DNA from: Opitutus sp. GAS368
GTDB lineage: Bacteria > Verrucomicrobiota > Verrucomicrobiia > Opitutales > Opitutaceae
Direction: 5' to 3'
DNA length: 33,167 nucleotides
Assembly: GCA_945861235.1 (NCBI GenBank)
Contig: CAMATV010000001.1
Span: forward strand, 1-33,167
Positions 6,248-32,687 of the stretch are shown piece after piece. The notes below the pieces were generated by a model. The model was not told where the DNA came from, made no database searches, and worked only from the letters and a program-made list of their open reading frames with translations. The position numbers and the translations under genes are program-made. Position 1 is the stretch's first letter; each line of letters begins with the position of its first letter.

Positions 6248-6333
6248 GCGGTTATTGAGTCGATACTGGATCAGGATGGGGTAGCGACTTGGGCTGCGAT
6301 AACTTAGTTTCTGCGAGCGTTACTGAAAGGGGA

Positions 6334-6369
6334 CTGGATTTTCAAGGGGGGCGAGTCCGGGAGGGGTTT
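6334..6369 (-). repeat. Repeat module M2, copy F (variant), between the transducer stop and the first GH-like gene
   Basis: ctggattttcaaggggggcgagtccgggaggggttt compared with the consensus CTGGATTTTCAGGGGGATCGGATCCGGGAGGGGTTTAA. Same length, 5 substitutions. Confidence 0.85.
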
Positions 6370-6424
6370 GTAAAGAGGCGCCCTGTGACAGACACGATTT
6401 TACCCACAAGCGACTGCCCTATCT

Positions 6425-9400
6425 TCAGAACTCTCCCTTGATCCCCACGGTCAGCGATATGCCAGAATCAATCATCCGGTCCAACCTGGCATGGCTGGGC
6501 GTGTTCTTGCTCCGATCGTAGATCAGGACCCTATCCTTATACCCGCCGGCGAGCAGATCGCTGATCTGCCCATAGATAGATAGCTTTTTTGTAACCTGAT
6601 ACTCGCCGGAGATGGTGTCGCGGTCAATAGCACCCTGATAGGTGGATCTCCCGACATCTGCCGTAGCCGTGCGCCGTGTCTCGCCCTGCTGGGCCATAGT
6701 AAATTTCAGGATGTACCGCGGCCGGACAAGGCTTACCCCCCAGCTCATCATCTTCGGGTTGAATTGGGCGAAGTCAGAGGTGGTAGATCCGCTCAACGAG
6801 TTCTTCGTGTAGTTGAAAAACACCTGCACTCCGCTTGCCCAGGAGTGAAGGAAGGCGAGGTCCTGCTTGTAGGAGAATTCGAATCCCTTGACTCTCGCAT
6901 CTCCGCCATTGCCCCGGGTCACGATGTCATAGTTCAGATACGATTCGCCGGACGGCACCCCGTAAAGGGACAGCAGCTCCTGAGTGGCTGCCGTGCGGAC
7001 CACGGTGAAAAAGTCCTTAATGTCTTTCTGGAACACGGAAACGGTGCCGAAGCCTCCCTTGAGGAAATACGATTCCAGTGAAAGATCGTAGTTGTTGGCC
7101 GTCCATGGCTTCAACCCGGTGTTGACCACCGTGACGGTCCCTTGCGACGTGGCGCCTGCATCGGAGATCGTAATGCCAGGAATGACCAATCCCAGGTCGG
7201 GCCGACCGATGGTGCTGGCAAAACCGAATCGCGCCAGCAGCCGCTCAGAGATCTCGTACGTGGCATTCAGGCTCGGGAAGAGGCCATCGTAGCTGCGCTC
7301 TGTCCGAGCTTCCCGCTCCCTGAGGACCAGCTTTTCCGCCTGCAATGGATTTGTGGTAATCGGCACGGGTTTGCCCGTCCCGTCTAGGACCAGCTTGCCG
7401 GACCCGTCCCGTACGTATTTCGCGTTGGGATCATTCAGCGGCCCCATGCCATCGTCTGCCGTCTTTTCGAACCGCACGCCGCCGACCAGGAATAGCCGGT
7501 TTCCCAGCAACTTCACATCGCCCCGAAAATATCCGGCGGTAATTGTTTCTGTCAGTTCCTTGGAATTGTTCACCCTAGTCCGGTACGTCGTCAGGTCATT
7601 GAGCACGAAATAGCCCGGCGAGGTCATGAAAAGATCATAGACCTTGAGCGGGCTGACCCACAGCACGGGTCTGCCGCCGTTCAGTATCCCTTGGTCCAGA
7701 TGAAGAGCAGTATCCACTAGAGCATTGTTGCCGGCCAATCGATCGGCTGCTGTCCCCGTGGGCCGGAAGGCGAACGTCCTATCGTTTCTAGCACCGTCAA
7801 ACTCATCGACCAAAATTGAAGCCCCAAATTTTATAGAGAGTGGAACTCTCGCGGAGAAACTGCGCTCGAGGCCAACTCTGGCCTCGCTTCTCGATACCTC
7901 GGTCTGTTGGCTTGCTGTGGATGCACTGGTGATGGTGTAAATGTTGCCATTGTTGCCATCTACAAGTTTTCCGGCCCGGTCTGTGGTCGTAAAGGCGGAA
8001 GGAACAAGATCGTATATTTCATTACCGTATCCGATACCAGAGCCTTTGATAATGAGATCTGAAATTGAGGCGCCCAAACCAGAGAAATACGGAAAACCTT
8101 CACTTCCGAAACTGGTTCTTGAGCGAGAGTTGCTCAGTTGGCCGGCTATCTTCCATAGATCGCCGCGATGACTGTACTTAAATACCCCATGCTTAGTTTC
8201 TATATTAAATTGGTTCCAGCCGAAAGTTTGCGAAAGCGAACCCACCCCAGTGCTGGCGCCCTGGGTGGAGGTTCGATCACCCGTGGCCCCGGCACCATAG
8301 TTGGTGTTGAGCGTGGACACCCCATCCGCGCTGCCCCTCCTGCGATATGATAGGCTGGCGCTGAATTCATTCCTGTCGTCCGGCTTCCATTCCACGCCCA
8401 CCCGTCCGTCCCTTGTTGCTTGCACCCCGGGGGAAGTCCGCACCCCATTCGAGGTTTGAATCAGGAGGTTCTCGTCCCATCGTGGGTAAGCTACGGTGTT
8501 GTCACTATAATTCAGAATGTTCGCCGCGGAGAGCGAGATTGCCAGCTTTTTGCCGATGGGGTGCATGTAAGCCACATCAAATGACGGCATAATCCGCCTG
8601 ATGGTAGAAACGTGCGACGAGGGAGTTCCCACATCGACCTCCTGCAGGGTCAACGGAAGATCGGTCCGAAGCAAACTATACACCGTGTAGGTAAAGAGTG
8701 GCCGCGTCCTTTCAAACCCGCTCTTGGTGATGATATTGATGCTGCTGCCCATACCGCTGGCCGGTAGGTCGGGCGTAGGCACCTTGTTCACCTCGACCCG
8801 CGAGACATTGGACATGGGGAGTGCAGCGGCCCTCGCTACCCTGCCAGGGCCAGTCAGGCCGGATGATACCAATGGAGCGCCATCCATCAACAATTCTGTC
8901 GTGTACGCCGGCATTCCCCTGACGGCGATACTGGAGGCCACGTTGCCAGAATAGACGATCGACATGCCCGGGATGAACTTTAGCAAATCCCCCACGTTGC
9001 CCTGACCGTTGTAATTGTACTCATCGAGGGCCACGACGTTCTTGATGTTTGCAGCGTTGCGCTGCTCATTCAGGGCGAGCGTCTGCGCGTTCATCTCGCG
9101 ACTCTCGATGACCGTCATCTCGCTCATGACTACGGGATCTCCCGCTCTGGCGAGTTCGAAATCACGCGTGGTGGTTTCCCCCGGTCTTACAATTGCAACC
9201 TCGATTTTCGCTTCCAGTCCGACATACGCCGCCCGAATCCGCACTTCACCGGCGGGCGCACCCGGCAGCCGGTAAGCGCCATTCACGTCGGTCGTGGTCA
9301 CTAGGGTGGAGCCAAGGATGGTGATGCGAGCGTTGCTAAGGTAGGACCCGGTGACCGAATTCAGGACTCGGCCTTCGATGGTTGAGCTAGTTTGGGCATC

Positions 9401-9910
9401 GACCGCAGTGGCTACGGCGAGCAAGCCGGTAAGAAAAGTGAGAAGAGTACGTGTTTTCACAGGAGGAGATTCGTTGTGTTTAGGTTGATTGGTTTTGGGT
9501 GTGTCGGGCGGCGGGGCGGGTGGGTTAGCCACCGGCGGGCCGCGTGATCGCTCCGACTCTTCCTGCTCCTTCTGCGCAGGTGCGGTCCGTTTTCGACTGA
9601 CGACAAGGGCACCCGTGGACTCGTCCTGGACGGCGAACAGAGCCGTGCCGGAGAGCATCACGCGGAGGGCATCGAGCGCCGCATACTCGCCGCGGACCGG
9701 CTGCGTCTTCTCGTCTCGGACATTTTCAACCAAGTAGACAATCTGGCAGCCGGAGTTACGGGCAAACTGCGTCAGCGTCGCGGCGGCATCACCACCCGGC
9801 ACATTGTAACTCTTCGTGGCCGCCGTGGCACCGGAGGTCGCCGACACGCCGATCGCGCAGCAAAATGCGGCTGCGAAAACCGGAGAGGCGGGGTAGATTT
9901 TTTGTGCCAT
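6425..9910 (-). CDS. TonB-dependent transducer: signal peptide, STN signalling domain, Pro-rich linker, CarboxypepD_reg-like domain, plug and beta-barrel
   Basis: Track ORF 6425..9991 starts at TTG. ATG at 9910 gives MAQKIYPASPVFAAAFCCAIGVSATSGATAA. The STN-like stretch is YNVPGGDAAATLTQFARNSGCQIVYLVENV...LRVMLSGTALFAV. This is followed by PPVANPPAPPPDTPK, then IEGRVLNSVTGSYLSNARITILG..NGAYRL, plug and barrel, ending in the aromatic ...GIKGEF. Confidence 0.85.
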   Translation of the reverse strand: MAQKIYPASPVFAAAFCCAIGVSATSGATAATKSYNVPGGDAAATLTQFARNSGCQIVYLVENVRDEKTQPVRGEYAALDALRVMLSGTALFAVQDESTGALVVSRKRTAPAQKEQEESERSRGPPVANPPAPPPDTPKTNQPKHNESPPVKTRTLLTFLTGLLAVATAVDAQTSSTIEGRVLNSVTGSYLSNARITILGSTLVTTTDVNGAYRLPGAPAGEVRIRAAYVGLEAKIEVAIVRPGETTTRDFELARAGDPVVMSEMTVIESREMNAQTLALNEQRNAANIKNVVALDEYNYNGQGNVGDLLKFIPGMSIVYSGNVASSIAVRGMPAYTTELLMDGAPLVSSGLTGPGRVARAAALPMSNVSRVEVNKVPTPDLPASGMGSSINIITKSGFERTRPLFTYTVYSLLRTDLPLTLQEVDVGTPSSHVSTIRRIMPSFDVAYMHPIGKKLAISLSAANILNYSDNTVAYPRWDENLLIQTSNGVRTSPGVQATRDGRVGVEWKPDDRNEFSASLSYRRRGSADGVSTLNTNYGAGATGDRTSTQGASTGVGSLSQTFGWNQFNIETKHGVFKYSHRGDLWKIAGQLSNSRSRTSFGSEGFPYFSGLGASISDLIIKGSGIGYGNEIYDLVPSAFTTTDRAGKLVDGNNGNIYTITSASTASQQTEVSRSEARVGLERSFSARVPLSIKFGASILVDEFDGARNDRTFAFRPTGTAADRLAGNNALVDTALHLDQGILNGGRPVLWVSPLKVYDLFMTSPGYFVLNDLTTYRTRVNNSKELTETITAGYFRGDVKLLGNRLFLVGGVRFEKTADDGMGPLNDPNAKYVRDGSGKLVLDGTGKPVPITTNPLQAEKLVLREREARTERSYDGLFPSLNATYEISERLLARFGFASTIGRPDLGLVIPGITISDAGATSQGTVTVVNTGLKPWTANNYDLSLESYFLKGGFGTVSVFQKDIKDFFTVVRTAATQELLSLYGVPSGESYLNYDIVTRGNGGDARVKGFEFSYKQDLAFLHSWASGVQVFFNYTKNSLSGSTTSDFAQFNPKMMSWGVSLVRPRYILKFTMAQQGETRRTATADVGRSTYQGAIDRDTISGEYQVTKKLSIYGQISDLLAGGYKDRVLIYDRSKNTPSHARLDRMIDSGISLTVGIKGEF

Positions 9911-10003
9911 GCGCAGGAGGTGCTTCACTCCTGAGACGCCGTATTCAAAAAAATGGGTAACAAACATCTTCACGAATCGGAGCGTTCCCAAGGATTAAAG
10001 GCG

Positions 10004-10029
10004 CCGCGAGAGGGCAACCGCCCTCGCGG
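10004..10029 (-). terminator. GC-rich hairpin just downstream of the FecR gene (candidate terminator/attenuator before the transducer gene)
   Basis: CCGCGAG(A)GGGC-aacc-GCCCTCGCGG: 10 bp with a 1-nt bulge. In minus sense it is followed by CGCCUUUAAUCCUU, only a partial U-tract. Confidence 0.4.
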
Positions 10030-10069
10030 AGTGGCTTGATTCCATTCTCCGATCATCGGGCCCACGGCA

Positions 10070-10112
10070 CCCACGGAACAGTCGGAAGGCCAGATTCCAA
10101 GTGTTCCGTGGG
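10070..10112. promoter_or_regulatory. 11-bp perfect inverted repeat CCCACGGAACA / TGTTCCGTGGG (21-nt spacer) between the FecR and transducer genes
   Basis: Arms at 10070-10080 and 10102-10112. A near-copy of the left arm (cccacggcac) sits immediately upstream at 10061-10070. Confidence 0.6.
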
Positions 10113-10227
10113 TAGCCCTGCTTTGGCCTTTGGTGGCGGCTGCGCCTCTACGGGTAGTTCGTGGGGGTTCCTCATCCATCGGTGGGACTGCGGTGGGGCG
10201 GCGTAGGCGCGCTGTAGAGTTTCCGGC

Positions 10228-11250
10228 CTATTGCGCCTTGCGCAGCACGATCTCGCGATCACCGCGGCGCTCGGCCTTCAGATCGCCGCCGCGCTCCAGC
10301 AGGCTGACAAACGCCTCGACGTTTCCGGCGGCAAACGTGCCACCCACCCGCCGGTCGCCCAAGTCGGCGTCGCCCAGATGCAGTTGGGTGCGGTTTTGCC
10401 GGTTGAATTGCGCAATGACCTTTCGCAGGGGCGTCTCGGAAAAGACCAGCATCTGCTCCTGCCAGGCGATCGCCTCCTGTAATTGCGCGGGCTCCAAACG
10501 CGTGATGATTGGAATCACTTCGGCCGCACCGCGCGGCACGAACGCACGGTCGCCTTTTTCCAAGAGCGGCGCTGCGGCCGGCGCCTCCGGTTTTGCTCCG
10601 GTCCACTGCTCGGGGGTGGACAACCGCACCTTTCCGGAGGTCACCACCACTTCGATCGACGCCGCGGCCATGCGGACGTTAAACGCGGTGCCCACGGCCC
10701 GGACCGTGACTCCACCGGCGGTCACCATAAACGGGCGCGCCTCATCGTGCGCCACCTCGAAATGCGCTTCGCCCGCATCCAGCAGCACGCGGCGCGCGGC
10801 GGAAGAATACTGCACCTTTGCGTTGCTGTTGGCGTTTAGTGTCACGGTGGAGCCATCCGGCAAGTCGATCTTCCGCATCATGCCCGCCGCGGTCGCATAG
10901 CCCGCATTCGGATTTCGGAGATCGTTACGCCACCAGATAAACCCGAGCATGAGCGCCGCGGCCGCCGCGAGCGACCAGACGACCGAGGCTCGGGACCACA
11001 TCGTCTTTCCGGCGGGTTGATGGCTCTGATGAGTGGCGCGGGCGGCAACCGGTGGCATTGCTTCAAGGATGCTCCAGGTCTCCTCCAATCGCTCAACGGC
11101 GTCTGCATGTCGCGGGCTCGCCGTCCGCCAGCGCTCGAATTCCTTCGCGCGTCCAGAGGCAAAGCCTTCGTCGCGTTCGATGAGCCAGGCCACCGCCGCC
11201 TCCTCGATGGGATCATGGTCGTCGAACGGATCGCTTTCCTGGGCGTTCAT
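10228..11250 (-). CDS. FecR-family anti-sigma factor / transmembrane sensor
   Basis: 340 aa. N-terminal anti-sigma region (EEAAVAWLIERDEG...RHADAVERLEETW), a single TM segment (VVWSLAAAAALMLGFIWW), a FecR core (DLPDGSTVTLNANSNAKV) and a C-terminal receptor-contact-like region. Its ATG overlaps the sigma stop (ATGA at 11247-11250). Confidence 0.88.
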   Translation of the reverse strand: MNAQESDPFDDHDPIEEAAVAWLIERDEGFASGRAKEFERWRTASPRHADAVERLEETWSILEAMPPVAARATHQSHQPAGKTMWSRASVVWSLAAAAALMLGFIWWRNDLRNPNAGYATAAGMMRKIDLPDGSTVTLNANSNAKVQYSSAARRVLLDAGEAHFEVAHDEARPFMVTAGGVTVRAVGTAFNVRMAAASIEVVVTSGKVRLSTPEQWTGAKPEAPAAAPLLEKGDRAFVPRGAAEVIPIITRLEPAQLQEAIAWQEQMLVFSETPLRKVIAQFNRQNRTQLHLGDADLGDRRVGGTFAAGNVEAFVSLLERGGDLKAERRGDREIVLRKAQ

Positions 11251-11804
11251 GACGCGGCCTTTTTCATGGTTTTTCCGTTCTGCAGCAGATCGCGCGAGGC
11301 GAAGAATTTGGCGCAGCGCCGAACGCCGCGGCCCAGTTGCACCTTTACAGTGTCGGTCGTGACGCCAAGGCGCTCGGCAATCTCCTTGTAGCTGAGGTTT
11401 TCCTGAAACCGCAGTTGCACCACTTCACGGCAGCGCTCCGGGAGACTGGCGAGGGCTTCCGCCAACGTCTCGTGCCGTTGGCGTTCATCCAAGAGATCGC
11501 CGACCCCGGGGGCCTCTTCCAGCGTAGGCAGTTCGTGCAATTCGGTCATTTCGACATGCTCATTTCTGGCCCGGCGGCGGAACAGATCCACGGCGACATT
11601 GTGCGCGGTCGAAAAGAAAAACGCCCGCGCGTGTCTGATCCCATCGCCTTTGGTCTGCGCCCGCAACATGCGTGAGAAAGACTCCTGCACGACGTCGTCC
11701 TGATCCCGCAGCGACGGGAAGCGCGACGTCAAATAGGCTCGGACGGCCGGTTCGTGCGGTTGCACATGCTCGGCAAACCATTGGAGTTCTTCAGGAGGGG
11801 ACAT
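11247..11804 (-). CDS. ECF-type RNA polymerase sigma-70 family factor
   Basis: 185 aa. Region 2-like: DVVQESFSRMLRA...AFFFSTAHNVAVDLFRRR. Region 4 HTH: LPERCREVVQLRFQENLSYKEIAERLGVTTDTVKVQLGRGVRR. The 4-nt overlap with the FecR gene indicates translational coupling. Confidence 0.9.
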   Translation of the reverse strand: MSPPEELQWFAEHVQPHEPAVRAYLTSRFPSLRDQDDVVQESFSRMLRAQTKGDGIRHARAFFFSTAHNVAVDLFRRRARNEHVEMTELHELPTLEEAPGVGDLLDERQRHETLAEALASLPERCREVVQLRFQENLSYKEIAERLGVTTDTVKVQLGRGVRRCAKFFASRDLLQNGKTMKKAAS

Positions 11805-11895
11805 CGGTCGGGGTTTTCCGTCGGGCGCAATAATGATTACCGCCGCCGGCCTACATGGGAAGTCAGGAAGAGCGGAAGTCGGCGAAAAGACTGAA

Positions 11896-12013
11896 AAAAC
11901 ATACCTGCGAGACCTGCGGGTGGTTTCTTTCGGTCACGGCCAAAACCCGGTTTTTGGGCGGGGGCTGATCGGAAGCTGGATTTTCAGGGGGATCGGATCC
12001 GGGAGGGGCTTTT
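11896..12013 (-). repeat. Repeat modules M1+M2, copy A, upstream of the ECF sigma gene
   Basis: 11896-11984 is identical base for base to 31983-32071. M2 (ctggattttcagggggatcggatccgggaggggctttt) occupies 11976-12013. Confidence 0.95.
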
Positions 12014-12083
12014 AACTTCGGCTTGGCTCCCGACCTTGGGCATCGCGACTGGTCTGCTGCGTGCGGCCGTGGACCCCTAGCAG

Positions 12084-12148
12084 GGTTCAGGTTTTAGTCG
12101 GCACATTCCGGCGGCTGACATTGGACATTAAAACCTGAGCCTTTTTTT
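12084..12148 (+). terminator. Hairpin plus T7 run, with intrinsic-terminator polarity on the plus strand only
   Basis: GGTTCAGGTTTTA (12084-12096) pairs with TAAAACCTGAGCC (12129-12141): 13 bp including one G-T pair. Followed by TTTTTTT at 12142-12148. The 32-nt loop can form an inner 6-bp stem (GTCGGC/GCTGAC). Confidence 0.55.
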
Positions 12149-12300
12149 GTTCCCTTGCCGAACCCCGGAATCAATTGCGCCGAAGAACGTTTACCCAGCT
12201 TCAACCGCCGCGACCCCAAACCCCAAAGCCTTCTCTGAGGAAGCGCGACGAGCGGCCGGCCATGCCCGAAAGCGGGCGCGAACGTCGAGCCTTTGGTCGG

Positions 12301-13614
12301 TCAGGATTCGTTGGCCTTGAGCACGCGAAGCATGTTGCCGCCGATAATTTTCTGGATCGTTTGATCGCTGTGTCCTCGCTGGACCATGCCGACGGTAAAC
12401 AGCGGCCAGTTGGTCCAGGCCAGCGAAGTGTCACGGTCCGGGCTGAGGGCACCCGGTGGCCAGAGGGCCTCCCAGCGGACTCGCGTTGGGTTGTTACGTG
12501 CCGGTAGTTTGACGTCGTTGGGTTTCACGCGGGATGTGTAGCCTGTGTCCGTGCCAATGCCGACGTGATTGGCGCCGAACCGCTTCACTAAATAGTCGAT
12601 GTGATCAAGGAAGGCGACGAGGTCTTTGTTACCGCCGAGGAAGTGGCCAATGCAGCAGACGCCGATGAGGCCATCGGTGTCGGCGATGGCTTTGATGACC
12701 TCGTCCTTCTTCGCGCGGATGTGTGGGTTGAGGGCGGCCGCAGAACTGTGGCTGGCGACCATGGGCTTCTTCGTGATTTTCGCAGCGTCGAAGCCGGTCT
12801 TCTGGCTGCTGTGAGCGCAGTCGGCGATTACCCCCTGGCGGTTGAGCTCGGCCACGACCATTTGGCCGAAGTCGCTCAGTCCGGCATCGATCGGCTCACC
12901 GCAGCCGTCGCCGATCGGGTTCCGTCGGTTGTACGTGAGGTGCATCATGCGCACGCCCAGCTCGGCAAAGACGCGGATATGACGCATTTCGTCGACGGTG
13001 TTGTTCCAATGTCCGACGAGGGGAACGCCATTGGTCGTCATCGTGATGGCGTGGTGGCCCGCTTTCTTGGCCGCGACAATCTCGTCCGCGCGCACCGCTT
13101 TAGGAAACCGTTCGCGCAGGCGGTCAGTGACGTAGACCCAACGGGCGAGTCTTTTCATGAGCCGCATCGGATCATTCCCCTCCTCGCCGGCGTTGCGGAT
13201 GATCGCCGTGACGCCAGCGGCCTGCCAAGCGCCCTCGTATTCAGCCCGCTCGGCGGCGTCGGTGACCATTCGGGTCATGCCCATGTCTTCGCGGGCATCG
13301 GCGATTTCCTGCTCAGCTGCGCCGGAGTTCATGATCTTCGCCAGGACGGCGTTATCGACTGCCGCGGCTGGGCCGAAGCCGTAGACGTCGAGCACCACGG
13401 AGTTAGCATGCAGCTCGAGGCCATGTTCGAGGTCTTTCGCGGAAGGTTTGAGGAGGGCGAGGCCGACCTGGCGGTGGGCGGCGATCTGCGTATTGGTGGC
13501 CGCAGGGGCAGGCCCGGCCGGCGCGGCGCCTTGGGCGGAGGGCAGCAAACTGGGTGCAACGAGGGGCGCGGCGGCTGCGACCAAGGAGTTGGCGAGGAAA
13601 GAACGACGGTTCAT
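12301..13614 (-). CDS. Tat-exported peptidase-M19 (renal/membrane dipeptidase) family protein
   Basis: Track ORF 12301..14031 overlaps the upstream receptor gene. The internal ATG at 13614 gives MNRRSFLANSLVAAAAPLVAPSLL (twin-arginine signal). Family-like blocks: MHLTYNRRNPIGDGCGE, IADCAHSSQKT, PMVASHSSAAALNPHIRAKKDEVIKAIADTDGLIGV, VGIGTDTGY. Confidence 0.8.
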   Translation of the reverse strand: MNRRSFLANSLVAAAAPLVAPSLLPSAQGAAPAGPAPAATNTQIAAHRQVGLALLKPSAKDLEHGLELHANSVVLDVYGFGPAAAVDNAVLAKIMNSGAAEQEIADAREDMGMTRMVTDAAERAEYEGAWQAAGVTAIIRNAGEEGNDPMRLMKRLARWVYVTDRLRERFPKAVRADEIVAAKKAGHHAITMTTNGVPLVGHWNNTVDEMRHIRVFAELGVRMMHLTYNRRNPIGDGCGEPIDAGLSDFGQMVVAELNRQGVIADCAHSSQKTGFDAAKITKKPMVASHSSAAALNPHIRAKKDEVIKAIADTDGLIGVCCIGHFLGGNKDLVAFLDHIDYLVKRFGANHVGIGTDTGYTSRVKPNDVKLPARNNPTRVRWEALWPPGALSPDRDTSLAWTNWPLFTVGMVQRGHSDQTIQKIIGGNMLRVLKANES

Positions 13615-13675
13615 CGTGGGAGGGAGGTTTGTGCTGAAGATTTTTTTGGAAATCGGTGAGAGGGGTCGCCGCGGC

Positions 13676-16600
13676 TTAAAACCGGCCGCTGACTCCGAGT
13701 GTGACGGTGACGTAGTTGTACATGATATCCTGAGCGCGCCCCGGGACGCCCTGATAGAGCCGCTGGGGTGCGTTAAAGATATTTGCCACGTCGCCGGTGA
13801 GTGAGACCGCCGGACGCAATTGATAGGCCAGACCCAGGTTGGTGGTCTTGAAAGAATACCGATAGAGGCTCGCCCCTGGACTCGTGCTGTTGTAACTGGA
13901 GATGTAGTTGCCGGTATAGTTATAAAGGATCCGGGTGCTGAAGCTCTGGTAGCGCCAGCTGAGACTGACATTGCCTGCCTTGGGGATGAAGCCGGGGACC
14001 TGCCCCGTCTTGCGCTCGGCCGTAGTGCCAAAGTTCCCCTTCGTGTCGATGACCGTATAGTTGGCGGCCCCGCTCAGACCCTTGAAAAGTCCCGGAAGAA
14101 AAGTGAACTGCTGGCGGTAGCTGAACTCCCATCCATCTACGGTGGCCGTGCCGTTGTTGGAGGAGGTTAGGCGCATGAAGCCGGCGTATTCACCATTATA
14201 GCCGTTGTCAGGTCCGGTGGGGACGATGCCGGTATTGGTGCCCGTCACGATATAATCCTTGATGGTCTTCTTGAACCAGCCGAGCGAAACGTTGCCGACG
14301 GGCTCGAAATAATAGTCGAGGGTGAAGTCCCAGTTCTTCGCGGTTTGCGGCAGGAGGCTGGGGTTGTTAATGGTGACAGTCTGGGTGGTCTCGTTGGCGG
14401 ATTCGCTGGGCAAGAGATTCGAAATGGCGGGTCGGCCGAAGCTGGTGGACCAACTGAGGCGGGCCTTGATGTCCTTGGTCAGATCATGGGTGAGGTGGGC
14501 GCTGGGGAACGATTTCGTATAGCTGCCCTTGCTCGCGCGCGCGGCACTTTCGTAATCGCGTTTCGCCGAACCCGCTGGATCGGCGACCTGCTGGGCGTTG
14601 GTGCTGCGGAGATTGGCGCGGACAAGGACCCAGCCCTGGCCCTCTGTATCGGTTTTTTCAGTACGTACGCCGGCGAGATAGCCCGTGCGACCAAGCCAAC
14701 CCTCGCGAGCGAGATTACCTTGGGCCATGAAATATCCGGCCGTCACCTCCTCGGATAAACTTCGCGTGCCGGAGTATTTGTTTGATTCGAAGAAATAGCC
14801 ATCTTCCAGCCAGAGGGCGGGGTTGGCAGGGAAGATGCCGGCCGAGCCGCCTCCGAAAAAATCGGATGTCTGCCACCGGGGAAGTTTCAGAGCGGTTTTG
14901 ATATTATTATAGGGGCGAGCGTTGGGATCGGCGGCGAGGCCGGTGGTGCCGAGATAGCTCCAACGCCGGGAGTAATTGGCGAGAGACACTTTCTGCGCGC
15001 GCCAAGATAAACCGGCTTTAAGGTGGGCGGGCACGGCCGTGGGCACGGTATAGCGCACGTTTCCGCGGGCTTGAGGCAGGGTCTGCGGTTGCTCGGAACT
15101 GGTCTTCAGAAGTCCGTTTGCGATCGGGCGATAGTTGGCCCCATTGGTGACGTCGAGCCCGGCAGTTTGGGTGAATCGGGGGAAGACATCCGACAGCGTG
15201 CGATCGATGGTCCAGCCGACGTTGCTCAAGCGGTTCGTGAGTGTGGTCTGGCCGCCTTGGGGCAGCAGGCCGGATTGCTGGTGGTTGCGGCTGAAGCTGA
15301 CGTTGTAGTCTATCCGCCATCGGCCGTACTCGTGCTCGGCTCCGAAATCCAGCAGGTACGTTTCAACGACATAGCTGTTCGGGCCATTGTTCACGATATC
15401 GATCATCGCTCCTGGAATCTGCCGTACCTGGGTGATTTTTTCGGTGTAGCCGGGGACGACCCCAGAGGTCGTCGCGTTTGGCACGGTGGTCCCATTCCCG
15501 GTGTACGCCGTCGCATTGTCGGTTCGGCGGAACCGCTCGACATTATCATTGATCGTCGCCGAGAGCGAAAACTTGGTGCTGAACGAATGACGGTAATCCG
15601 TCTTTACGTTCACGCTTCGCTGCATGCGGTTGTTATAACCTTCCCTCGTCTGGTAACTCCATTGGTAAGCGGGTTCGTTGAGATTGGTGGTGTTCTGAAA
15701 TTGGTTGGTCACGCGAAACTGACCGACGGCATTTTCGCTGTAAAAAATATTTGCCGCGATGCCCAGATTGCGAGTGCCCCCGAACACGCTGAAGACCTCC
15801 TGATAAGCGAGGTTCAATAAAGGATGGGAGCGGTGCTCCTCGCGCCGCGGCACCTGCTCGGTAAAGGCGGGGGCGGTCCTGACCGTCGCACTATAAGTTA
15901 CTCGGCGTTTTTCTTTCATGTTTAACGGCGACCGTGTCTTCATGTTGATCGTACCGCCGAGCGAGTCGGCTGTTTTGTCAGGCGTGTGCCCCTTGATCAC
16001 CTCTAATTGCTCGAACATCGTACCGGAGATGCTCTGGAGTTCGAAGGCGCGATTTGTGCCGATACTGGCCATGAGCCCTCCGTCTACGGTGACGGTGTTG
16101 AGCCCGGGCGCCATGCCGCGGATATTGAAAGCGTAGGCCAATCCCTCCTCGCTGGGGCTGCCGGCGATACCGGGCAGTCGCATCACGACCTCGCCTGCGC
16201 TCATATTAGGCAAGTTGCCGAAAGAATCCATCGCGACGATGTTCTTCACATTGCTCGCGTTCCGCTGTGCCGTGATGGCGAGCGCGTCACCTTCGCGTTC
16301 ACCCGTGACCTTGAACGCGTCCAACCTATAAATATTCGAGCTGAGTTCGAAATCGCGCAAGGCCCGCTGACCGGCGCCGATCGTAATCTGGCCGTTCGCG
16401 GAATCGAGGCCGATGTAGGATACGGCTATCTCGTGAGTGCCCGCCCGCACACCGGTGAGCACATAGCGGCCGGTGTTGTCGGTGAGGGCCTTGAGGCCTA
16501 GAGTTGGTAGCTCGACTCTCGCGCCTTCGAGCAGATTGCGGGTGGCGGAATTGCTGATCGTTCCGGTGATGGTACTGACGGGGGTCTCCGCGTTGATCGA

Positions 16601-16690
16601 TTTTTCGTCGACTGCCCGAGAACCGGGAGCGAGGGCCGAGGCGAGCACCATCGAGGCGAGCACGCGGAATTCTGAAGAACTTATTTTCAT
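13676..16690 (-). CDS. TonB-dependent receptor with N-terminal CarboxypepD_reg-like domain (TBDR-2)
   Basis: Track ORF starts at TTG 16711. ATG at 16690 gives MKISSSEFRVLASMVLASALAPGS. Then ITGTISNSATRNLLEGARVEL...TGRYVLTGVRAGTHEIAVSYIGL, plug (DAFKVTGEREGDALAITAQRNASNVKNIVAMDSFGNLPN) and barrel, ending ...LGVSGRF. Paralog of 28875..31919. Confidence 0.88.
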   Translation of the reverse strand: MKISSSEFRVLASMVLASALAPGSRAVDEKSINAETPVSTITGTISNSATRNLLEGARVELPTLGLKALTDNTGRYVLTGVRAGTHEIAVSYIGLDSANGQITIGAGQRALRDFELSSNIYRLDAFKVTGEREGDALAITAQRNASNVKNIVAMDSFGNLPNMSAGEVVMRLPGIAGSPSEEGLAYAFNIRGMAPGLNTVTVDGGLMASIGTNRAFELQSISGTMFEQLEVIKGHTPDKTADSLGGTINMKTRSPLNMKEKRRVTYSATVRTAPAFTEQVPRREEHRSHPLLNLAYQEVFSVFGGTRNLGIAANIFYSENAVGQFRVTNQFQNTTNLNEPAYQWSYQTREGYNNRMQRSVNVKTDYRHSFSTKFSLSATINDNVERFRRTDNATAYTGNGTTVPNATTSGVVPGYTEKITQVRQIPGAMIDIVNNGPNSYVVETYLLDFGAEHEYGRWRIDYNVSFSRNHQQSGLLPQGGQTTLTNRLSNVGWTIDRTLSDVFPRFTQTAGLDVTNGANYRPIANGLLKTSSEQPQTLPQARGNVRYTVPTAVPAHLKAGLSWRAQKVSLANYSRRWSYLGTTGLAADPNARPYNNIKTALKLPRWQTSDFFGGGSAGIFPANPALWLEDGYFFESNKYSGTRSLSEEVTAGYFMAQGNLAREGWLGRTGYLAGVRTEKTDTEGQGWVLVRANLRSTNAQQVADPAGSAKRDYESAARASKGSYTKSFPSAHLTHDLTKDIKARLSWSTSFGRPAISNLLPSESANETTQTVTINNPSLLPQTAKNWDFTLDYYFEPVGNVSLGWFKKTIKDYIVTGTNTGIVPTGPDNGYNGEYAGFMRLTSSNNGTATVDGWEFSYRQQFTFLPGLFKGLSGAANYTVIDTKGNFGTTAERKTGQVPGFIPKAGNVSLSWRYQSFSTRILYNYTGNYISSYNSTSPGASLYRYSFKTTNLGLAYQLRPAVSLTGDVANIFNAPQRLYQGVPGRAQDIMYNYVTVTLGVSGRF

Positions 16691-16748
16691 AGTGGCGGAA
16701 ATTTTACTCAAAAGAATACCTTTTTGAGACGGGGGTTACTGATAACGG

Positions 16749-17028
16749 ACTGGCTTTTCAGGGGGATCATAAGGGACTGGATTTTCAGGGGATCGGATCC
16801 GGAAGGAGTTTAAGGGGAGGGGCATGGTGGGAGCTGGATGAGTTAGCCGTAAATCAGTCGATTTTGAGATGGCGGCGGGTTCGGCTGAGGATGGAGACTT
16901 GGGGTGGGGAACGGCTGCGACGGAAAGGGGGCTTTCGGGCGCGAATCGAGGCTCTGCTTGCCGATTTGGGGCAAGCAGCGCGGGGTGGGGATGCGCGGAT
17001 GCAGTGATCCGGATCGCTCGGAGTCAAG
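16749..17028 (-). repeat. Repeat modules M2 (partial copy plus full copy) and M3, copy D, upstream of TBDR-2
   Basis: Partial M2 at 16749-16768 (actggcttttcagggggatc). Full M2 at 16777-16813. M3 at 16814-17028 aligns with 32190-32404; both are 215 nt, with about 30 differences by hand count. Confidence 0.9.
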
Positions 17029-17042
17029 GAGCCAGCGTTTTT
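17015..17042 (+). terminator. Weak hairpin plus T5 run at the plus-strand end of M3 copy D
   Basis: CGCT(C)GG at 17015-17021 pairs with CCAGCG at 17032-17037 (6 bp, 1 bulge, 10-nt loop). Followed by TTTTT at 17038-17042. Confidence 0.3.
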
Positions 17043-17196
17043 AGAATCGCGGTAAACGCCTAACCGGGGTCGGAACCCCTTGCGCGGACGCGCCACCAAT
17101 GACACCCCACACGGCCTTCGGCATCAGACTGCTAGACGGGCTTAGAAAATACCCGTGCAAGGACGATGGAGCTATTGCCTCGCGGAAAGAACCGCT

Positions 17197-17331
17197 CACC
17201 TGCATGCACGATCTGCGGCTATATCGCGGCATCGCGCACGCTGTTGATTTCTGTCACGGCCAAAATCCGATTTTGGGGCGGGGGCTGCTAGGAAACTGAA
17301 TTTTTAGGGGGATCGGATCCGGGAGGGTTAA
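17197..17331 (-). repeat. Repeat modules M1' (diverged) plus M2, copy C, abutting the TBDR remnant
   Basis: ...ttctgtcacggccaaaatccgattttggggcgggggctgctaggaaactgaatttttagggggatcggatccgggagggttaa. The dyad CCAAAATC-C-GATTTTGG replaces the CCAAAACC-C-GGTTTT(T)GG of copies A and B. Confidence 0.85.
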
Positions 17332-17509
17332 TCGCCACCCGGGCGGTTCCCGCGATGGCGACCGAAGCTCCGGCAAGGTATAAACGGGTCGCGGCGTTGT
17401 TAACCTCGCTGGTGAGGCTGGCCGCAGGGGCGGAGGAAACCGGCGCGGAAGACGAAAACAAGGCTCCGAGGGTGGTGAGGAGGAAAGCGAAAGGACGGGA
17501 ACGTTTCAT
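17288..17509 (-). pseudogene. Remnant of a TonB-dependent receptor gene: signal peptide plus the first part of the CarboxypepD_reg domain, then read-through into repeat M2
   Basis: ATG at 17509 gives MKRSRPFAFLLTTLGALFSSSAPVSSAPAASLTSEVNNAATRLYLAGASVAIAGTARVA. This aligns with GSLTGFVSNAETKRGLEGAIVEVPQ of TBDR-4. The remaining 14 codons (INPPGSDPPKNSVS) are simply the translation of repeat M2/M1'. Confidence 0.6.
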
Positions 17510-19886: not shown

Positions 19887-20089
19887 ATCCAGTTCCCGAT
19901 TGAAATCAAGCGCGGCGCAAAGGACTGTCGTCGTCCTTTCCACGACCTTCGGCGTCGCGTTACCCGTGACGCTGAGAGTCGTTGCCCGTTTCCCTCCGCC
20001 CACCGGATCCGCCCTCGCGGCCGACGCGATCTGCCCCGTCCATAAAATCGAGCTCCCCCCACCTTCGACGGTTTGTTGCTGCTCGGAAA

Positions 20090-20124
20090 CTGGATTTTCA
20101 GCAAGAATCGGACACGGTCGGGCC
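20090..20124 (-). repeat. Repeat module M2, degenerate copy H, upstream of the lone alpha/beta-hydrolase gene
   Basis: ggaaactggattttcag is intact. The 3' half (caagaatcggacacggtcgggcc) matches the consensus only partially. Confidence 0.6.
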
Positions 20125-20419
20125 GTTCAATGTTCGAATGGTAATCATGCACAATGAAAACCGAGCAAAACCTCGAACTCCGAACTCCGAACGACGAACG
20201 GCCCGACCCCATTGGTTACACGGCTCTTCACATGTATCGAGCTGATCGATACGCAAAGTGCGCAACAGAATTTCCCTCTCTTCTGGCAATGGGTGAAGGA
20301 TCATCCTGCCCATCGGCAAAATTTTTTTCTTCCCAATGTCCCGCAAAATCGGAGCCGCTAGTCCTGATCAGCCATTTAGATCAACCTAGGACCACGCGCT
20401 GAATCTGCACGGCGCGGCC

Positions 20420-20557
20420 CGATGGGGTCTGTCCGCTGATTGCAATGCAGTCCTATCGCTGAATCTTGGCGCCTCGAGGATGGGTCGGATCGGCGCTGGC
20501 ACGGGCTGAGGGCAATCTCTCGCAACAGACCTTGCAATCAGCGGACTGACCCCATCG
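20420..20557. repeat. 138-bp element bounded by 26-bp near-perfect terminal inverted repeats (MITE-like or long stem-loop)
   Basis: Left arm cGATGGGGTCTGTCCGCTGATTGCAA at 20420-20445. Right arm TTGCAATCAGCGGACTGACCCCATCg at 20532-20557. One mismatch in 26. The direct repeat CGCTGAATCT occurs at 20397-20406 and 20457-20466. Confidence 0.85.
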
Positions 20558-28782: not shown

Positions 28783-28832
28783 GCTGATAGAAAACTGGAT
28801 TTTCAGGGGGATCGGATCCGGGAGGGGTTTAG
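28783..28832 (-). repeat. Repeat module M2, copy G, between TBDR-4 and TBDR-3
   Basis: gctgatagaaaactggattttcagggggatcggatccgggaggggtttag. The core is identical to the consensus. Confidence 0.9.
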
Positions 28833-28874: not shown

Positions 28875-31800
28875 TTAGAACCGACCGGAAAGTCCGGCGG
28901 TGATGGTGAGGAAGTTTTGCGTGTAAGCCTGGTATCGGTGTGAGGTACCCTGATAAAAGGCCTGCGGCTCCTTGGTCAAGTTGCTGATATCGAGTGTGGC
29001 GGTGAGCTTCGGATTAATTTGGTAACCCATGCCCCAATCCAACACCGTTCGGGCATAGCGATAGAGATTAGCCCCGGGGGCGGTCGCGCTGAACGAGGAA
29101 ATATAGGAGCCGTTGTAGTTGGCGATAACGCGCGTGTTAAAGTTTTTGTAGGACCACCGCACCATGACATTTCCCAACTTCGGTACAAAACCGGCCACTT
29201 CACCGGTCTTCCGCTGGACGCCGGCGAGGTTGCCGAAATCACCTTCGGTGGTGAGCGTGGTGTAATTGGCCGAGAGGGCCATTCCCTTCCAAAGCCCGGG
29301 CAGAAACGTGAACTGCTGCTGGTAGCTCAATTCAAAGCCGTTTACTTTGGCGGTACCCGCATTGAGCGAAGTTTGGATGCGATAGCCCGCATACTCGCCG
29401 TTGAACCCGTTACCGTTGCCACTGGAGACAATCCCGTTGTCTAATCCACTCACGATGTAGTCGGTAATATTCTTGTTGAACCAGCCCACGGACAGGCTGC
29501 CCAAGGGTTCAAAATAATATTCGAGCGTCGCATCCCAATTGGTCGCCATCTGCGGCAGCAAGGACGGATTGTTGATGGTGATCGTCTCCGTCGACTCGCT
29601 GACCGACTCATTAGGCATGAGGTTGGTCGGAGCAGCGCGGCCGAAGCCGGTCGACCAGCTCAAGCGGGCCTTGAGGTTCCGCGTAATATCGTGGTGGATA
29701 TGGACGCTCGGGAAGGTCTTGGTGTAGCTCCCCTCCAGAGTACGCCGGTAGGCATCGTAATCGCGAAATGCCGATCCGCGGGGGTCGGAAACTTGCTGGG
29801 CGACGGTGCTGACGTTCGTGCCCTTCGTGCGCACCCACCCGTAGCTTTCTGTTTCGGTTTTTTCCTGACGCACCCCGGCAAGAAAGCCGCTGCGGGACAG
29901 CCAGCCTTGGGAGCCGAACTTGCCCTTGAACATGCCATAACCGGCGGTGACGTCCTCGGTCACACCCCGATCGCCAGTGTAGGCATTTTGGTGAAAGAAG
30001 TAGAGATCCTCGGACCAAAGTGCCGGATTTTTTGGCGCGCGGTCCGTCATGAAATCAGAGACCTGCCAGATCGGCATATTCTTGCCTTCGGCAAACGTGC
30101 CGTAAAACCCGATGGTGGGATCCGTGGGAAGGGCTGCGGCACCGAGGTAACTCCACCGGCGGCTATAATTTTGGATCTTTATGTCCAGTTGCCGCCAAGT
30201 GAATCCAGTTTTGAAGACGATGGGGGCAGCCGTGGGCAGGGTGTAAATCAGGTCCGCGTTGAAATGTTTGTTATACTGATTCTGAGTCTGCGGACTGGCA
30301 GCTAGCCCGTTGGCGATCGGGCGGTAATTATTGGGATCCGAGATATCCGGACCGGCGGTTTGGGTAAGACGGGAAAAATCCGCGCCGTTAGGGCTCTCGA
30401 GGGTCCAGCCAGCGCCAGCCATGCGTTGCGTGAGCGCGTATTGGCCGCCCTTCCCGCCACCCGTGGTCTGACCGGTCATAAGATTATTCCGGCTGTAGCC
30501 GGTATTATAATCGAGTTTGATCGGCCCGTAGGTGTGTTCACCCGCAAAGGACGCGAGCCACTGCCGGACGATGTAGCTGTTCGGACCCGTCGTGCTCAGA
30601 TCAATCAGCGACGTGTTCGTCGCGCTCGTCAGGTAGTTGGCCGTGGTCAGCGGCCGAACGGTGGTCACGGTATCCGTCCAACCGGGATTAATGCCCGTGG
30701 CGAGGGAGGTCGCGCTGGGGACGGCGGTGCCGGAGCCGGTGTAAGCCCGCATGGTATAGCCACGGCGCATCCGCTCGATATTATGGTTGAACAGGGAGTT
30801 AACCGTGAACTTTGAAGTATCCGAAAACCGATACTCCGTCTTCACGTTTACGTTCTTCTGCGCCCGGTTATTGAAATTGTTTCGAATACTGTAATCCCAA
30901 ACGTACGCCGGAGACGCCGTCACGTTTTGGAAATTGCGATTAACGATCACGCCGCCAATCGCGTTTTCACTATAGCGGACGTTGGCCTGCACTCCGAGAT
31001 TACGCTGTTCCCCAAAAACGCTGAAGACTTCCTGATAGGAGAGCGTGAACAGTGGATGATAACGATGCTGCGCCCGGAGCGGAACATGCTCCGTGAAGGG
31101 AGGCGCGCCGCGAACCATCGAGCTGAAGTTCAGAATCCGCCTTTCCTTCATGTTGAGGGTCGACCGGGTTTTCAAATTGAGGTTGCCGCCGAGCGAGTCG
31201 GCGCTCGCATCGGGGGTCAACCCCTTGATCATTTCCATCTGCTCGTACATCGTCGCCGAAACCGTGTGCACTTCCAGCGCGCGGTTCGTACCGATGGTGG
31301 GCATGCGCTGGCCATCCATCGTCACCGTGTTCAGGTTGCCCGGCATGCCGCGGACTTGGAACCCGGTGTTGAGCCCCTCGTCATTCGTGGAAGGGGCGAC
31401 GCCGGGCAGGCGCATCATTACTTCGCCCACACTCATGTTCGGCAGGTTGCCGAAGGAATCCATCGCCACCACGTTCTTCACGTTATTCGCGTTGCGTTGC
31501 ATCGTAAGCGCTAGGGCATTGCCCTCGCGTTCCCCGGTTACCTTGAAGGCATCCAGTTTATAGACGCTGCTCGTGAGCTCGGCATTGCTGGTCGAACGCT
31601 GGCTCCCAGCGACCGAGATCGATACTTTCATCGTATCAAGACCCAGATAACTGATCGAAATCTCGTGAGTTCCCGCCGGTAGGCCAGTCAAGACGTAACG
31701 GCCGGAGTTGTCCGACTGAGTGGAGAGTCCGAGTTGGGGCACCTCGACGATGGCGCCCTCAAGGCCCCTTTTCGTTTCGGCGTTGCTAACAAAGCCGGTG

Positions 31801-31919
31801 AGGCTACCGCTTCCCCTGGCTTGAGAGGTGGCGGTGGCGGCAGGTTGGGCGAGCGAAGTGGGCAACCCTTGGAGGGCAGCCCACGCGGTTAGTCCGACTA
31901 ACAGGGGCAATATTTTCAT
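28875..31919 (-). CDS. TonB-dependent receptor with CarboxypepD_reg-like domain (TBDR-4), paralog of TBDR-2
   Basis: Track ORF 28875..31958. ATG at 31919 gives MKILPLLVGLTAWAALQGLPTSLAQ. Motifs: SLTGFVSNAETKRGLEGAIVEV...SGRYVLTGLPAGTHEISISYLGL and DAFKVTGEREGNALALTMQRNANNVKNVVAMDSFGNLPN. Ends ...AGLSGRF. Confidence 0.88.
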   Translation of the reverse strand: MKILPLLVGLTAWAALQGLPTSLAQPAATATSQARGSGSLTGFVSNAETKRGLEGAIVEVPQLGLSTQSDNSGRYVLTGLPAGTHEISISYLGLDTMKVSISVAGSQRSTSNAELTSSVYKLDAFKVTGEREGNALALTMQRNANNVKNVVAMDSFGNLPNMSVGEVMMRLPGVAPSTNDEGLNTGFQVRGMPGNLNTVTMDGQRMPTIGTNRALEVHTVSATMYEQMEMIKGLTPDASADSLGGNLNLKTRSTLNMKERRILNFSSMVRGAPPFTEHVPLRAQHRYHPLFTLSYQEVFSVFGEQRNLGVQANVRYSENAIGGVIVNRNFQNVTASPAYVWDYSIRNNFNNRAQKNVNVKTEYRFSDTSKFTVNSLFNHNIERMRRGYTMRAYTGSGTAVPSATSLATGINPGWTDTVTTVRPLTTANYLTSATNTSLIDLSTTGPNSYIVRQWLASFAGEHTYGPIKLDYNTGYSRNNLMTGQTTGGGKGGQYALTQRMAGAGWTLESPNGADFSRLTQTAGPDISDPNNYRPIANGLAASPQTQNQYNKHFNADLIYTLPTAAPIVFKTGFTWRQLDIKIQNYSRRWSYLGAAALPTDPTIGFYGTFAEGKNMPIWQVSDFMTDRAPKNPALWSEDLYFFHQNAYTGDRGVTEDVTAGYGMFKGKFGSQGWLSRSGFLAGVRQEKTETESYGWVRTKGTNVSTVAQQVSDPRGSAFRDYDAYRRTLEGSYTKTFPSVHIHHDITRNLKARLSWSTGFGRAAPTNLMPNESVSESTETITINNPSLLPQMATNWDATLEYYFEPLGSLSVGWFNKNITDYIVSGLDNGIVSSGNGNGFNGEYAGYRIQTSLNAGTAKVNGFELSYQQQFTFLPGLWKGMALSANYTTLTTEGDFGNLAGVQRKTGEVAGFVPKLGNVMVRWSYKNFNTRVIANYNGSYISSFSATAPGANLYRYARTVLDWGMGYQINPKLTATLDISNLTKEPQAFYQGTSHRYQAYTQNFLTITAGLSGRF

Positions 31920-31982: not shown

Positions 31983-32071
31983 AAAACATACCTGCGAGAC
32001 CTGCGGGTGGTTTCTTTCGGTCACGGCCAAAACCCGGTTTTTGGGCGGGGGCTGATCGGAAGCTGGATTTT
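31983..32071 (-). repeat. Repeat module M1, copy B, 64 nt upstream of the TBDR-4 start codon
   Basis: 89 nt identical to 11896-11984: aaaacatacctgcgagacctgcgggtggtttctttcggtcacggccaaaacccggtttttgggcgggggctgatcggaagctggatttt. Confidence 0.95.
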
Positions 32072-32151
32072 TTTCGACGCCGGTCACTTCCACCTTGGCG
32101 AGTTGCTCGATGTGGAGCAGGACACTGCCAAGTTGAGCGGCTGCTAGGAAA

Positions 32152-32404
32152 CTGGATTTTCAGGGGGATCGGATCCGGGAGGGGTTTAAGGGGAGGGGCA
32201 GGGGGGGATTTGGATGAGTTAGACGTAAATGAGTCGATTTTGGGAGGGCGGCGGGTTCGGGTGATGCTGGGGACTTGGGGTGGGGAACGACTGCGACCGA
32301 AAGGGGGATTGCGGGCGCGAATCGAGGCTCTGCTTGCCGTTTGGGGACAAGCAACGTGGGGTGGGGATGAACGAGCGGTGAGCTCCGAATCGCTCGGGGT
32401 CAAG
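32152..32404 (-). repeat. Repeat modules M2+M3, copy E
   Basis: M2 consensus copy at 32152-32189. M3 at 32190-32404 aligns with 16814-17028. Confidence 0.9.
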
Positions 32405-32687
32405 TCGCAACGCGTTGCGGGCCTCCGAGCGAATTTCCCATTATGCGTTTTGTGTTGGCCGGATCGAACCAGCGCACGGTGGGACGAGGGTTGTTATGAC
32501 GGTGACCCTGTTTGCATCACATGCTCCGATGCACAGGCTTTCTGCTGTTCCTTCCCAAGTTAGCATCACGACGACTCCCATTCATCGGGCGTCACCAACC
32601 GAGCCTACACGGGCCACGGTGGTCAATTGATGTGGGCCGCGTTTCGCGGGCCAAAATCGCCGTGGTGCTTCAGGTCGGATCGTTCCA

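Follow-up and report, generated by a model that had tools for sequence, protein, structure and literature searches.

The stretch of DNA analyzed here (the window) comprises 33,167 nt of contig CAMATV010000001.1 in assembly GCA_945861235.1 of Opitutus sp. GAS368. It carries two copies of a G-rich intergenic module, which we call M3, upstream of two paralogous TonB-dependent receptor genes. These genes, TBDR-2 (13676..16690) and TBDR-4 (28875..31919), are both on the - strand, and both products have CarboxypepD_reg, Plug and barrel domains in Pfam (TonB_dep_Rec_b-barrel in TBDR-2). Start codons were assigned in both genes and a signal peptide in TBDR-2; an exact-sequence protein look-up of TBDR-2 returned no record. 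From residue 40 onward the two proteins share 53% identity, and no alignment of the signal peptides is possible, in agreement with a first interpretation made from the letters without database searches (the sequence-only reading). Copy D of M3 (16788..17045) lies upstream of TBDR-2 and copy E (32164..32411) upstream of TBDR-4. Both are on the - strand, for which M3 is C-rich, and both were delimited by repeat search, profile search and alignments (in copy D, a family-profile nhmmer match at 16816-17043; in copy E, MAFFT). Positions 16788-17028 and 32164-32404 form a gapless 241-nt repeat pair with 86% identity according to both the repeat search of the window and MAFFT, which bears out the equal-length pair at about 85% identity that had been reported for 16814-17028 and 32190-32404. 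Similarity reaches about 26 nt further left than that module and enters an adjacent 49-nt motif (D1). With the receptors at 53% protein identity and M3 at 86% nucleotide identity, the upstream module is therefore better conserved than the genes. Copy E lacks the terminal GCGTTTTTA and has CGCAACGCGTTGCG in place of this right end; a related contig, L012, ends in the same way.

The most distinctive property of M3 is its strand asymmetry. Over 214 nt, the + strand contains 45-47% G and 16-18% C, and no other G-skew tract in the window is as long or as strong as those of copies D and E: (G-C)/(G+C) reaches 0.62 and 0.73, and the average over the window is 0.03. These counts agree with the earlier description of the module as C-rich and G-poor on the coding strand of the downstream gene. 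Each copy has 7-10 runs of at least four G, and no internal tandem sub-repeats were found in M3 by Tandem Repeats Finder (TRF).

Similar copies are present in other genomes and metagenomes, where pairwise identity among M3 copies is 78-93%; because the module recurs at this level, it is not a chance match. A scan of one genome per species with a 22-mer from M3 identified 10 loci, including eight on seven contigs of one "Opitutus sp. GAS368" metagenome-assembled genome (MAG) and two in other Opitutaceae/Opitutae bins. A scan of lake metagenomes used a 20-mer overlapping the 22-mer, and both scans select for one block of M3. Twelve metagenome contigs matched, seven with true M3 copies; the other five matches were chance hits inside genes encoding ...RARIEAL... 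and were discarded. For copies independent of this pattern, a protein collection was searched with the translated M3 consensus. This search yielded 30 clusters of "proteins" (94-214 aa, mostly singletons with 1-4 members per cluster, no domain), which are spurious open reading frame (ORF) calls over M3, and their contigs provided seven further M3 loci. In total, about 25 copies were recovered from Opitutaceae genomes and lake metagenomes, and none was found in plasmid, phage, or IMG/VR collections. Copies from the same genome are no closer to one another than to copies from other genomes. Many contigs start or end inside M3 (L009, L013, L017, L022, and at both ends L015 and L016), which is expected because M3 is a multi-copy repeat. 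Contig L016 is 99.2% identical to window positions 11919-17192 and therefore belongs to the same species, and L012 is 94% identical to 32303-33167.

The position of M3 relative to genes is very regular. In all 17 evaluable copies, a gene start lies on the 3' side of the C-rich strand at a distance of 18-400 nt, and where a same-strand gene is present on the other side of M3, the module is also in sense with it (7/7). The downstream gene encodes a TonB-dependent receptor in 12 of the 17 copies. These receptors belong to very different subfamilies, with 25-45% identity to TBDR-2, TBDR-3, and TBDR-4 by tblastn. The five other downstream genes are unrelated and encode a PQQ_2 propeller, a TIR_2 protein, a BNR_2 protein, an Acyl_transf_3 protein with Ank repeats, and a beta-lactamase-fold protein. 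The suggestion that M3 is a leader dedicated to one receptor subfamily is thus not supported, since the module precedes distant receptors as well as unrelated genes. The alternative suggestion of a non-autonomous repeat fared better. M3 does occur at many unrelated loci (eight in one MAG and about 25 overall), as a miniature inverted-repeat transposable element (MITE) would, but it is not a plain MITE. Repeat searches and alignments found no terminal inverted repeats at the ends of M3, D1-M3, or D1...D1, and no target-site duplications were found; the flanks of the 17 copies share only D1, on one side. The sole duplication near M3 is CCCCTCCC at the D1/M3 junction in three copies. MITEs and Correia-type elements are likewise small, non-autonomous, dispersed, often located upstream of genes, and prone to break assemblies, but M3 differs from them in lacking terminal inverted repeats, a target-site duplication and a nearby related transposase, and in its locked orientation. 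For these reasons M3 was rejected as a classical MITE.

M3 is one module of a larger mosaic. The repeat search of the window and BLAST with individual modules defined the repeats D1, D3, M4a/b, and M3, which follow the sense-strand order D1-D3-M4b-M4a-M3-D1-(D3)-gene. In copy D, read on the + strand, M3 is followed by M4a (17029-17123), M4b (17124-17215), and a second D3-D1 (distal D3 core and D1 copy, 17216..17332), all on the - strand; the M4 modules were delimited by BLAST of the whole intergenic region and of the separate modules, and the distal repeats by repeat search and module BLAST. Between copy D and the TBDR-2 start codon lies a D1 motif with its core CCCCTGAAAATCCAG duplicated (16738..16812, - strand; repeat search, TRF, and module BLAST). 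The M4-M3 cassette of copy D is therefore bracketed by direct repeats, the distal D3-core/D1 and the proximal D1, and this order is repeated in L007, L010, L015, and L016. M4a/M4b adjoin M3 in copies D, L001, L007, L008, L010, L015, L016, L017, and L022. Copy E abuts a D1 copy (32140..32188, - strand; repeat search and module BLAST), and a D3 module (31983..32071, - strand) lies between D1/M3 and the TBDR-4 start codon. The combinations seen are D1-M3, D1-M3-M4a, and D1-M3-M4a-M4b-D3-D1, i.e., a fixed module order with variable presence.

The D1 and D3 repeats are not confined to M3 loci; they are found upstream of many genes that lack M3. D1 (49 nt) has seven copies in the window in uniform orientation upstream of - strand genes (6322-6370, 11964-12012, 16738-16812, 17284-17332, 20078-20126, 28783-28831, and 32140-32188), with ...CCCCTCCCGGATCCGATCCCCCTGAAAATCCAG... 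on its sense strand. It contains GGATCNGATCC as well as the core, and a similar core directly precedes the TBDR-4 start codon. At three sites, D1 begins about 45-55 nt past the stop codon of the preceding receptor gene. D1 could serve as a promoter, as a leader, or as a site of recombination. D3 is an 89-nt module with three copies in the window. Two of these (11896-11984 and 31983-32071) are 20 kb apart, before an extracytoplasmic function (ECF) sigma factor gene and TBDR-4, and are 100% identical, which suggests recent gene conversion. D3 opens with a + strand hairpin and a T-rich tail that resembles a terminator by scan (31989-32009).

Modular intergenic repeats of this kind are known from other bacteria. 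The bacterial interspersed mosaic elements (BIMEs) of Escherichia coli and the BOX elements of Streptococcus pneumoniae consist of palindromic units that fold into stable stem-loops. Like them, the M3 mosaic consists of short non-coding intergenic modules in fixed order and variable composition, with many copies per genome in a narrow lineage, and BIME and BOX elements can also sit in transcribed leaders. M3 itself has no palindromic units with stable stem-loops, is much longer (about 230 nt, or 430 nt with M4), is strongly strand-asymmetric, and keeps one orientation relative to the neighboring gene. M3 is a module within a lineage-specific family of mosaic intergenic repeats of freshwater Opitutaceae (Verrucomicrobiota). 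It belongs to a known class of elements, within which it stands out for its strict orientation, extreme strand asymmetry, and preference for receptor genes.

Three observations indicate that the modules are recombination junctions. The match between contig L016 and the window breaks off precisely within the D1 that precedes the ECF sigma factor gene (L016 5120-5558 versus window 11780-12075); at that point L016 carries D3-M4b-M4a-M3, and three copies of the junction motif TTCTAAAAACGNNG are found where M4a meets M3. This difference reflects either true structural variation among near-identical strains or a chimeric assembly. Upstream of the M4-M3 cassette of copy D, 72 codons encoding a signal peptide and the first CarboxypepD_reg residues (17291..17507, - strand) read straight into the distal D1. 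This stub matches receptor N-termini in L009 (E 1e-7), L013, and L011 by tblastn and the TBDR-4 N-terminus by BLASTP, and it is a decapitated receptor gene fused to D1; no further receptor 5' stubs were found beside the other M3 copies. The third case is L012: at its locus orthologous to copy E, the distal half is all that is left of M3. On this evidence, D1 could be a site where the M4-M3 cassette is gained or lost with no transposase involved, a route that would also lock its orientation. At one locus only, a truncated serine-recombinase ORF (Resolvase N-terminal domain; L001 3516-4055, - strand) ends 30 nt from an M3 copy, on its M4a side.

Conserved RNA structure was not found in M3. The hairpin CTGCTTGCC-GATTTGG-GGCAAGCAG (16954..16978), which the sequence-only reading had described in both copies, is present at this position in copy D, but it is perfect only there and is degraded in copy E. 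In other copies the 3' arm is GCAATCAT, GCAAGCTG, or ACAAGCAA and the 5' arm is unchanged; in later-found copies the 5' arm is also broken, and the four variants of the 3' arm are uncompensated. Over 17 copies, 93% of this helix is paired; one pair has four broken cells, and true compensation is absent. Another local hairpin, GAAAG/CTTTC, was rejected because its arms vary without compensation. The RNAalifold consensus of 17 full-length copies (about 230 nt) has 43 pairs and -37 kcal/mol on the G-rich strand, with many G-U pairs, and 19 pairs and -8.7 kcal/mol on the C-rich strand. The covariation term is not favorable on either strand, and the C-rich strand has no compensatory pairs. On the G-rich strand, 95.5% of cells are paired compared to 95.0% in shuffled alignments (20 of 500 shuffles reach the observed value), and double changes occur at two pairs (119 of 500 shuffles reach it); these counts are within the range of related sequences without any structure. 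Covariation, proposed earlier as a check on the module, thus gives no significant support for structure on either strand. A search of Rfam 15 with E values up to 10 gave no match at M3 or M4, and M3 therefore has neither the covariation-backed structure nor the described RNA family of a structured leader or riboswitch.

Several observations suggest that M3 is part of a transcribed leader. In L010, only 18 nt separate the end of a truncated M3 from a TTG start codon, which is followed by a clear signal peptide; in L008, the distance from M3 to the ATG is 36 nt. These distances are too short for a promoter, and therefore M3 is either transcribed in sense or holds the promoter itself. L010 lacks the promoter-proximal 85 nt of M3, which places the promoter further upstream, and D1/D3 occur before many genes without M3; a transcribed leader is therefore the best reading. 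Most likely, M3 is a piece of a long untranslated mRNA leader and not a dedicated structured switch for the two receptors.

We therefore propose that M3 is a module of a recombination-spread, orientation-locked mosaic repeat that forms a C-rich untranslated leader and plausibly loads Rho, and we give this reading a probability of roughly one half. Under this proposal, M3 would be transcribed with its C-rich strand in sense, within a long untranslated leader or an inter-cistronic spacer. The M4-M3 cassette would spread between gene-upstream regions through recombination at the flanking D1/D3, which may serve as portable homology, so that a transposase would be unnecessary and the orientation of M3 would be locked to that of D1. 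Any effect on the host gene would stem from composition: 45% C, 17% G, near-zero consensus structure, and few start codons, since none of ATG, GTG, and TTG can be formed without G. Untranslated RNA that is C-rich, G-poor, and poor in structure is the textbook substrate of Rho, and the sense strand of M3 provides the at least 80 nt of C-rich, G-poor RNA typical of a Rho-utilization (rut) site. The M3 RNA might thus be a Rho loading site, and M3 a Rho-dependent attenuator or insulator whose read-through would set receptor expression. Such a role is plausible given the composition and the lack of consensus structure. The Rho step, which we only infer, is the weakest link of the proposal. Attenuation, already suggested by the sequence-only reading, would be the most economical biochemical role for M3, acting as a portable module rather than as a switch of one subfamily. 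Rho-dependent attenuators are known from the long 5' leaders of mgtA, corA, and rho in enterobacteria, which on this proposal resemble M3 in having a long untranslated, C-rich, G-poor, weakly structured stretch directly before the coding region. Those leaders differ in being single-copy, locus-specific, and controlled through defined structures or small RNAs, whereas M3, whose Rho dependence is hypothetical, is a repeat common to unrelated genes. A stronger version, in which M4-M3 is a mobile cassette, bracketed by D1/D3 as portable homology or recombinase sites, that moves among regions upstream of outer-membrane receptor and glycan-utilization genes and provides each with a long C-rich leader for conditional Rho- or antisense-RNA-dependent attenuation, appears improbable.

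Several findings weigh against the leader proposal. About half of the receptor genes at M3 loci have no M3. Copy-to-copy conservation of 78-93% exceeds what a rut site needs, and in the sole orthologous pair M3 is 95.1% identical compared to 94.3% for the adjacent unique intergenic DNA. M3 is thus no better conserved than its flank, and constraint, and hence function, is therefore undemonstrated. Single C-strand copies fold slightly better than dinucleotide shuffles (mean minimum free energy z-score -1.60). The G-rich strand ends in a weak hairpin followed by T5-6 in most copies, which hints at transcription of the other strand. No usable promoter was found on either strand of the two intergenic regions with stringent or relaxed settings; these scans were sigma-70-like, and promoter types of Verrucomicrobiota may differ. 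No sigma-54 or ECF consensus was recognized by eye, and the conserved TTGACT lacks a -10 partner.

The first alternative, which we consider possible but doubtful, treats M3 as a repeat, selfish or neutral, that has no host function and is decaying; one ancestral expansion, through recombination or an unknown mobilizing enzyme, would have left copies that now drift. Its orientation bias would then exist only because the reverse orientation is harmful, e.g., by terminating the host transcript at the G-strand hairpin and T-run. The similarity matrix of the copies is star-like, with the lack of within-genome clustering described above, and truncated and mosaic copies occur (L007, L010, and L012). 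The similar divergence of M3 and flanking DNA in the orthologous pair and the failure to find structure or coding signal point in the same direction. So does the loss of a "28-nt invariant core" (CGGGCGCGAATCGAGGCTCTGCTTGCCG), which has about 9% substitutions, the family average, in the pattern-independent copies and was rejected as an ascertainment artefact. However, neither mobilization machinery nor inverted repeats or target-site duplications were found, and M3 keeps a consistent position 18-400 nt upstream of start codons. Full-length copies have also been kept in several species despite the deletion bias of bacteria. Invariant columns outside the search block are in excess, with 89 compared to 40 expected under uniform rates, to which tree structure may contribute. 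A function of M3 is plausible.

A second alternative is that M3 is the gene of a G-rich small RNA of about 230 nt, divergent from the receptor, which would start near D1, end at the hairpin and T-run, and regulate either the receptor leader, as a cis-antisense RNA, or C-rich leaders in trans. A parallel would be DonS of Bacteroides fragilis, reportedly one of the antisense RNAs associated with polysaccharide utilization loci. In most copies with an intact right end, including those without M4, the boundary is GCGTTTTT(T)A, and in L004 and L006 the T-run is immediately preceded by a perfect 8-bp stem. In addition, several of the one-sided changes switch between G-C and G-U pairs, which only the G strand tolerates. 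Most other copies have a stem of 4 bp displaced 5 nt from the conserved T5-6, the scan called no intrinsic terminator at the end of M3, and a good G-strand terminator is seen in those two copies only. Copy E and L012 lack the T-run altogether. The G strand folds no better than shuffles (mean z-score -0.23), its covariation is not significant, and the sigma-70 scans found no promoter on it. Furthermore, if solo D1 copies acted as promoters on that strand, transcription from them would run into the 3' ends of upstream genes. Multicopy RNAs that control SusC-like receptors provide a precedent (PMC11697453). The FopS RNAs of Bacteroides are trans-acting, 65-70 nt long, and have mapped promoters and terminators and a conserved seed (PMC11697453). 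FopS (PMC11697453) and the susC cis-antisense RNAs resemble M3 as sequence families with about 10-15 copies per genome and a link to SusC/TonB-dependent receptor expression, but M3 is about 230 nt long, physically attached to the receptor upstream region, found in a different phylum, and without a detectable promoter or robust terminator. On balance, a small RNA gene is an unlikely explanation.

A third alternative places the action of M3 at the DNA level, through regulator sites such as the palindrome CTCCG-N7-CGGAG or through the approximately ten G-tracts of the template strand, which might form G-quadruplexes that modulate transcription. Conserved blocks without RNA structure or coding signal, among the best of them CTCCGGATCGCTCGGAG, and the frequent G-runs would fit this explanation. 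The length of M3, 230 nt (430 nt with M4), far exceeds that of an operator, however, and in 5 of 17 copies the downstream gene has an unrelated function. L010, which lacks the 85 promoter-proximal nt and has the remainder of M3 next to the start codon, fits a leader more readily than an upstream activating site. We find action at the DNA level quite unlikely.

The remaining alternative, a small protein encoded in the G-strand frame ...RARIEALLAVWGQ... or the C-strand frame ...TASRASIRARNPPFRR..., is close to refuted, although two frames of the M3 consensus are stop-free, three 3-nt indels preserve the G-strand frame, and gene callers placed ORFs over M3. Among 17 copies, 153 distinct substitutions are distributed over the codon positions as 46/52/55, without codon periodicity. 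Synonymous changes equal the random expectation in all six frames (500 simulations), with 40 observed compared to 42.3 +/- 5 expected in the open G-strand frame and 44 compared to 40.6 in the other open frame. Six-frame translation of 12 copies revealed stops or frameshifts in several, the start codon is not conserved, and the called proteins are the mostly singleton, domain-free clusters mentioned above. By these three tests, protein coding by M3 was ruled out. The non-coding substitution pattern first noticed in two copies therefore holds in the larger alignment, and no small ORF with a synonymous excess emerged when more copies were added.

Other features of the window were noted as well. 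At 32558-32667 on the + strand, there is a sub-threshold match over the full-length model of the S-adenosylmethionine (SAM)-I/IV riboswitch aptamer RF01725 (37.5 bits compared to a gathering threshold of 41.1; E 0.01). It lies directly upstream of a + strand ORF starting near 32689 (MKQNQTLEVQSS..., no Pfam match). It is also the stretch most divergent from L012, with 82.7% identity compared to 94-100% around it; the differences are clustered and could be compensatory. The intergenic region at 20.2-20.6 kb contains a 26-nt inverted repeat (20420-20445 and 20532-20557, 96% complementary) with arms 86 nt apart, which is unrelated to M3. A FecI/FecR-type unit on the - strand (6425-11804) includes the ECF sigma factor (11247-11804), a FecR/DUF4880 anti-sigma factor (10228-11250), and a 1188-aa receptor (6425-9991). 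The same cluster encodes a protein with a weak GH32 N-terminal domain match (4763-6247; Pfam E 2.7e-5), an M19 dipeptidase, and an AXE1-like esterase, and it has the look of a polysaccharide- or peptide-utilization locus.

Opitutaceae of fresh water are abundant and degrade polysaccharides, and they take up nutrients mainly through TonB-dependent receptors. To our knowledge, almost nothing has been reported on the regulation of these receptors in Verrucomicrobiota. M3 explains assembly breaks at receptor loci of Opitutaceae genomes, and for annotation it is a source of spurious ORF calls that have entered a public collection as 30 clusters. Should M3 prove to be no more than a decaying repeat, the interest of the finding would be local. 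As a mark of long leaders before receptor genes, M3 provides a handle on possible Rho-dependent or RNA-based control. The presence of the M3 cassette differs between 99%-identical sequences (the window and L016), and if M4-M3 is indeed a mobile cassette that installs attenuation, its gain and loss from strain to strain would rewire which nutrient receptors are expressed.

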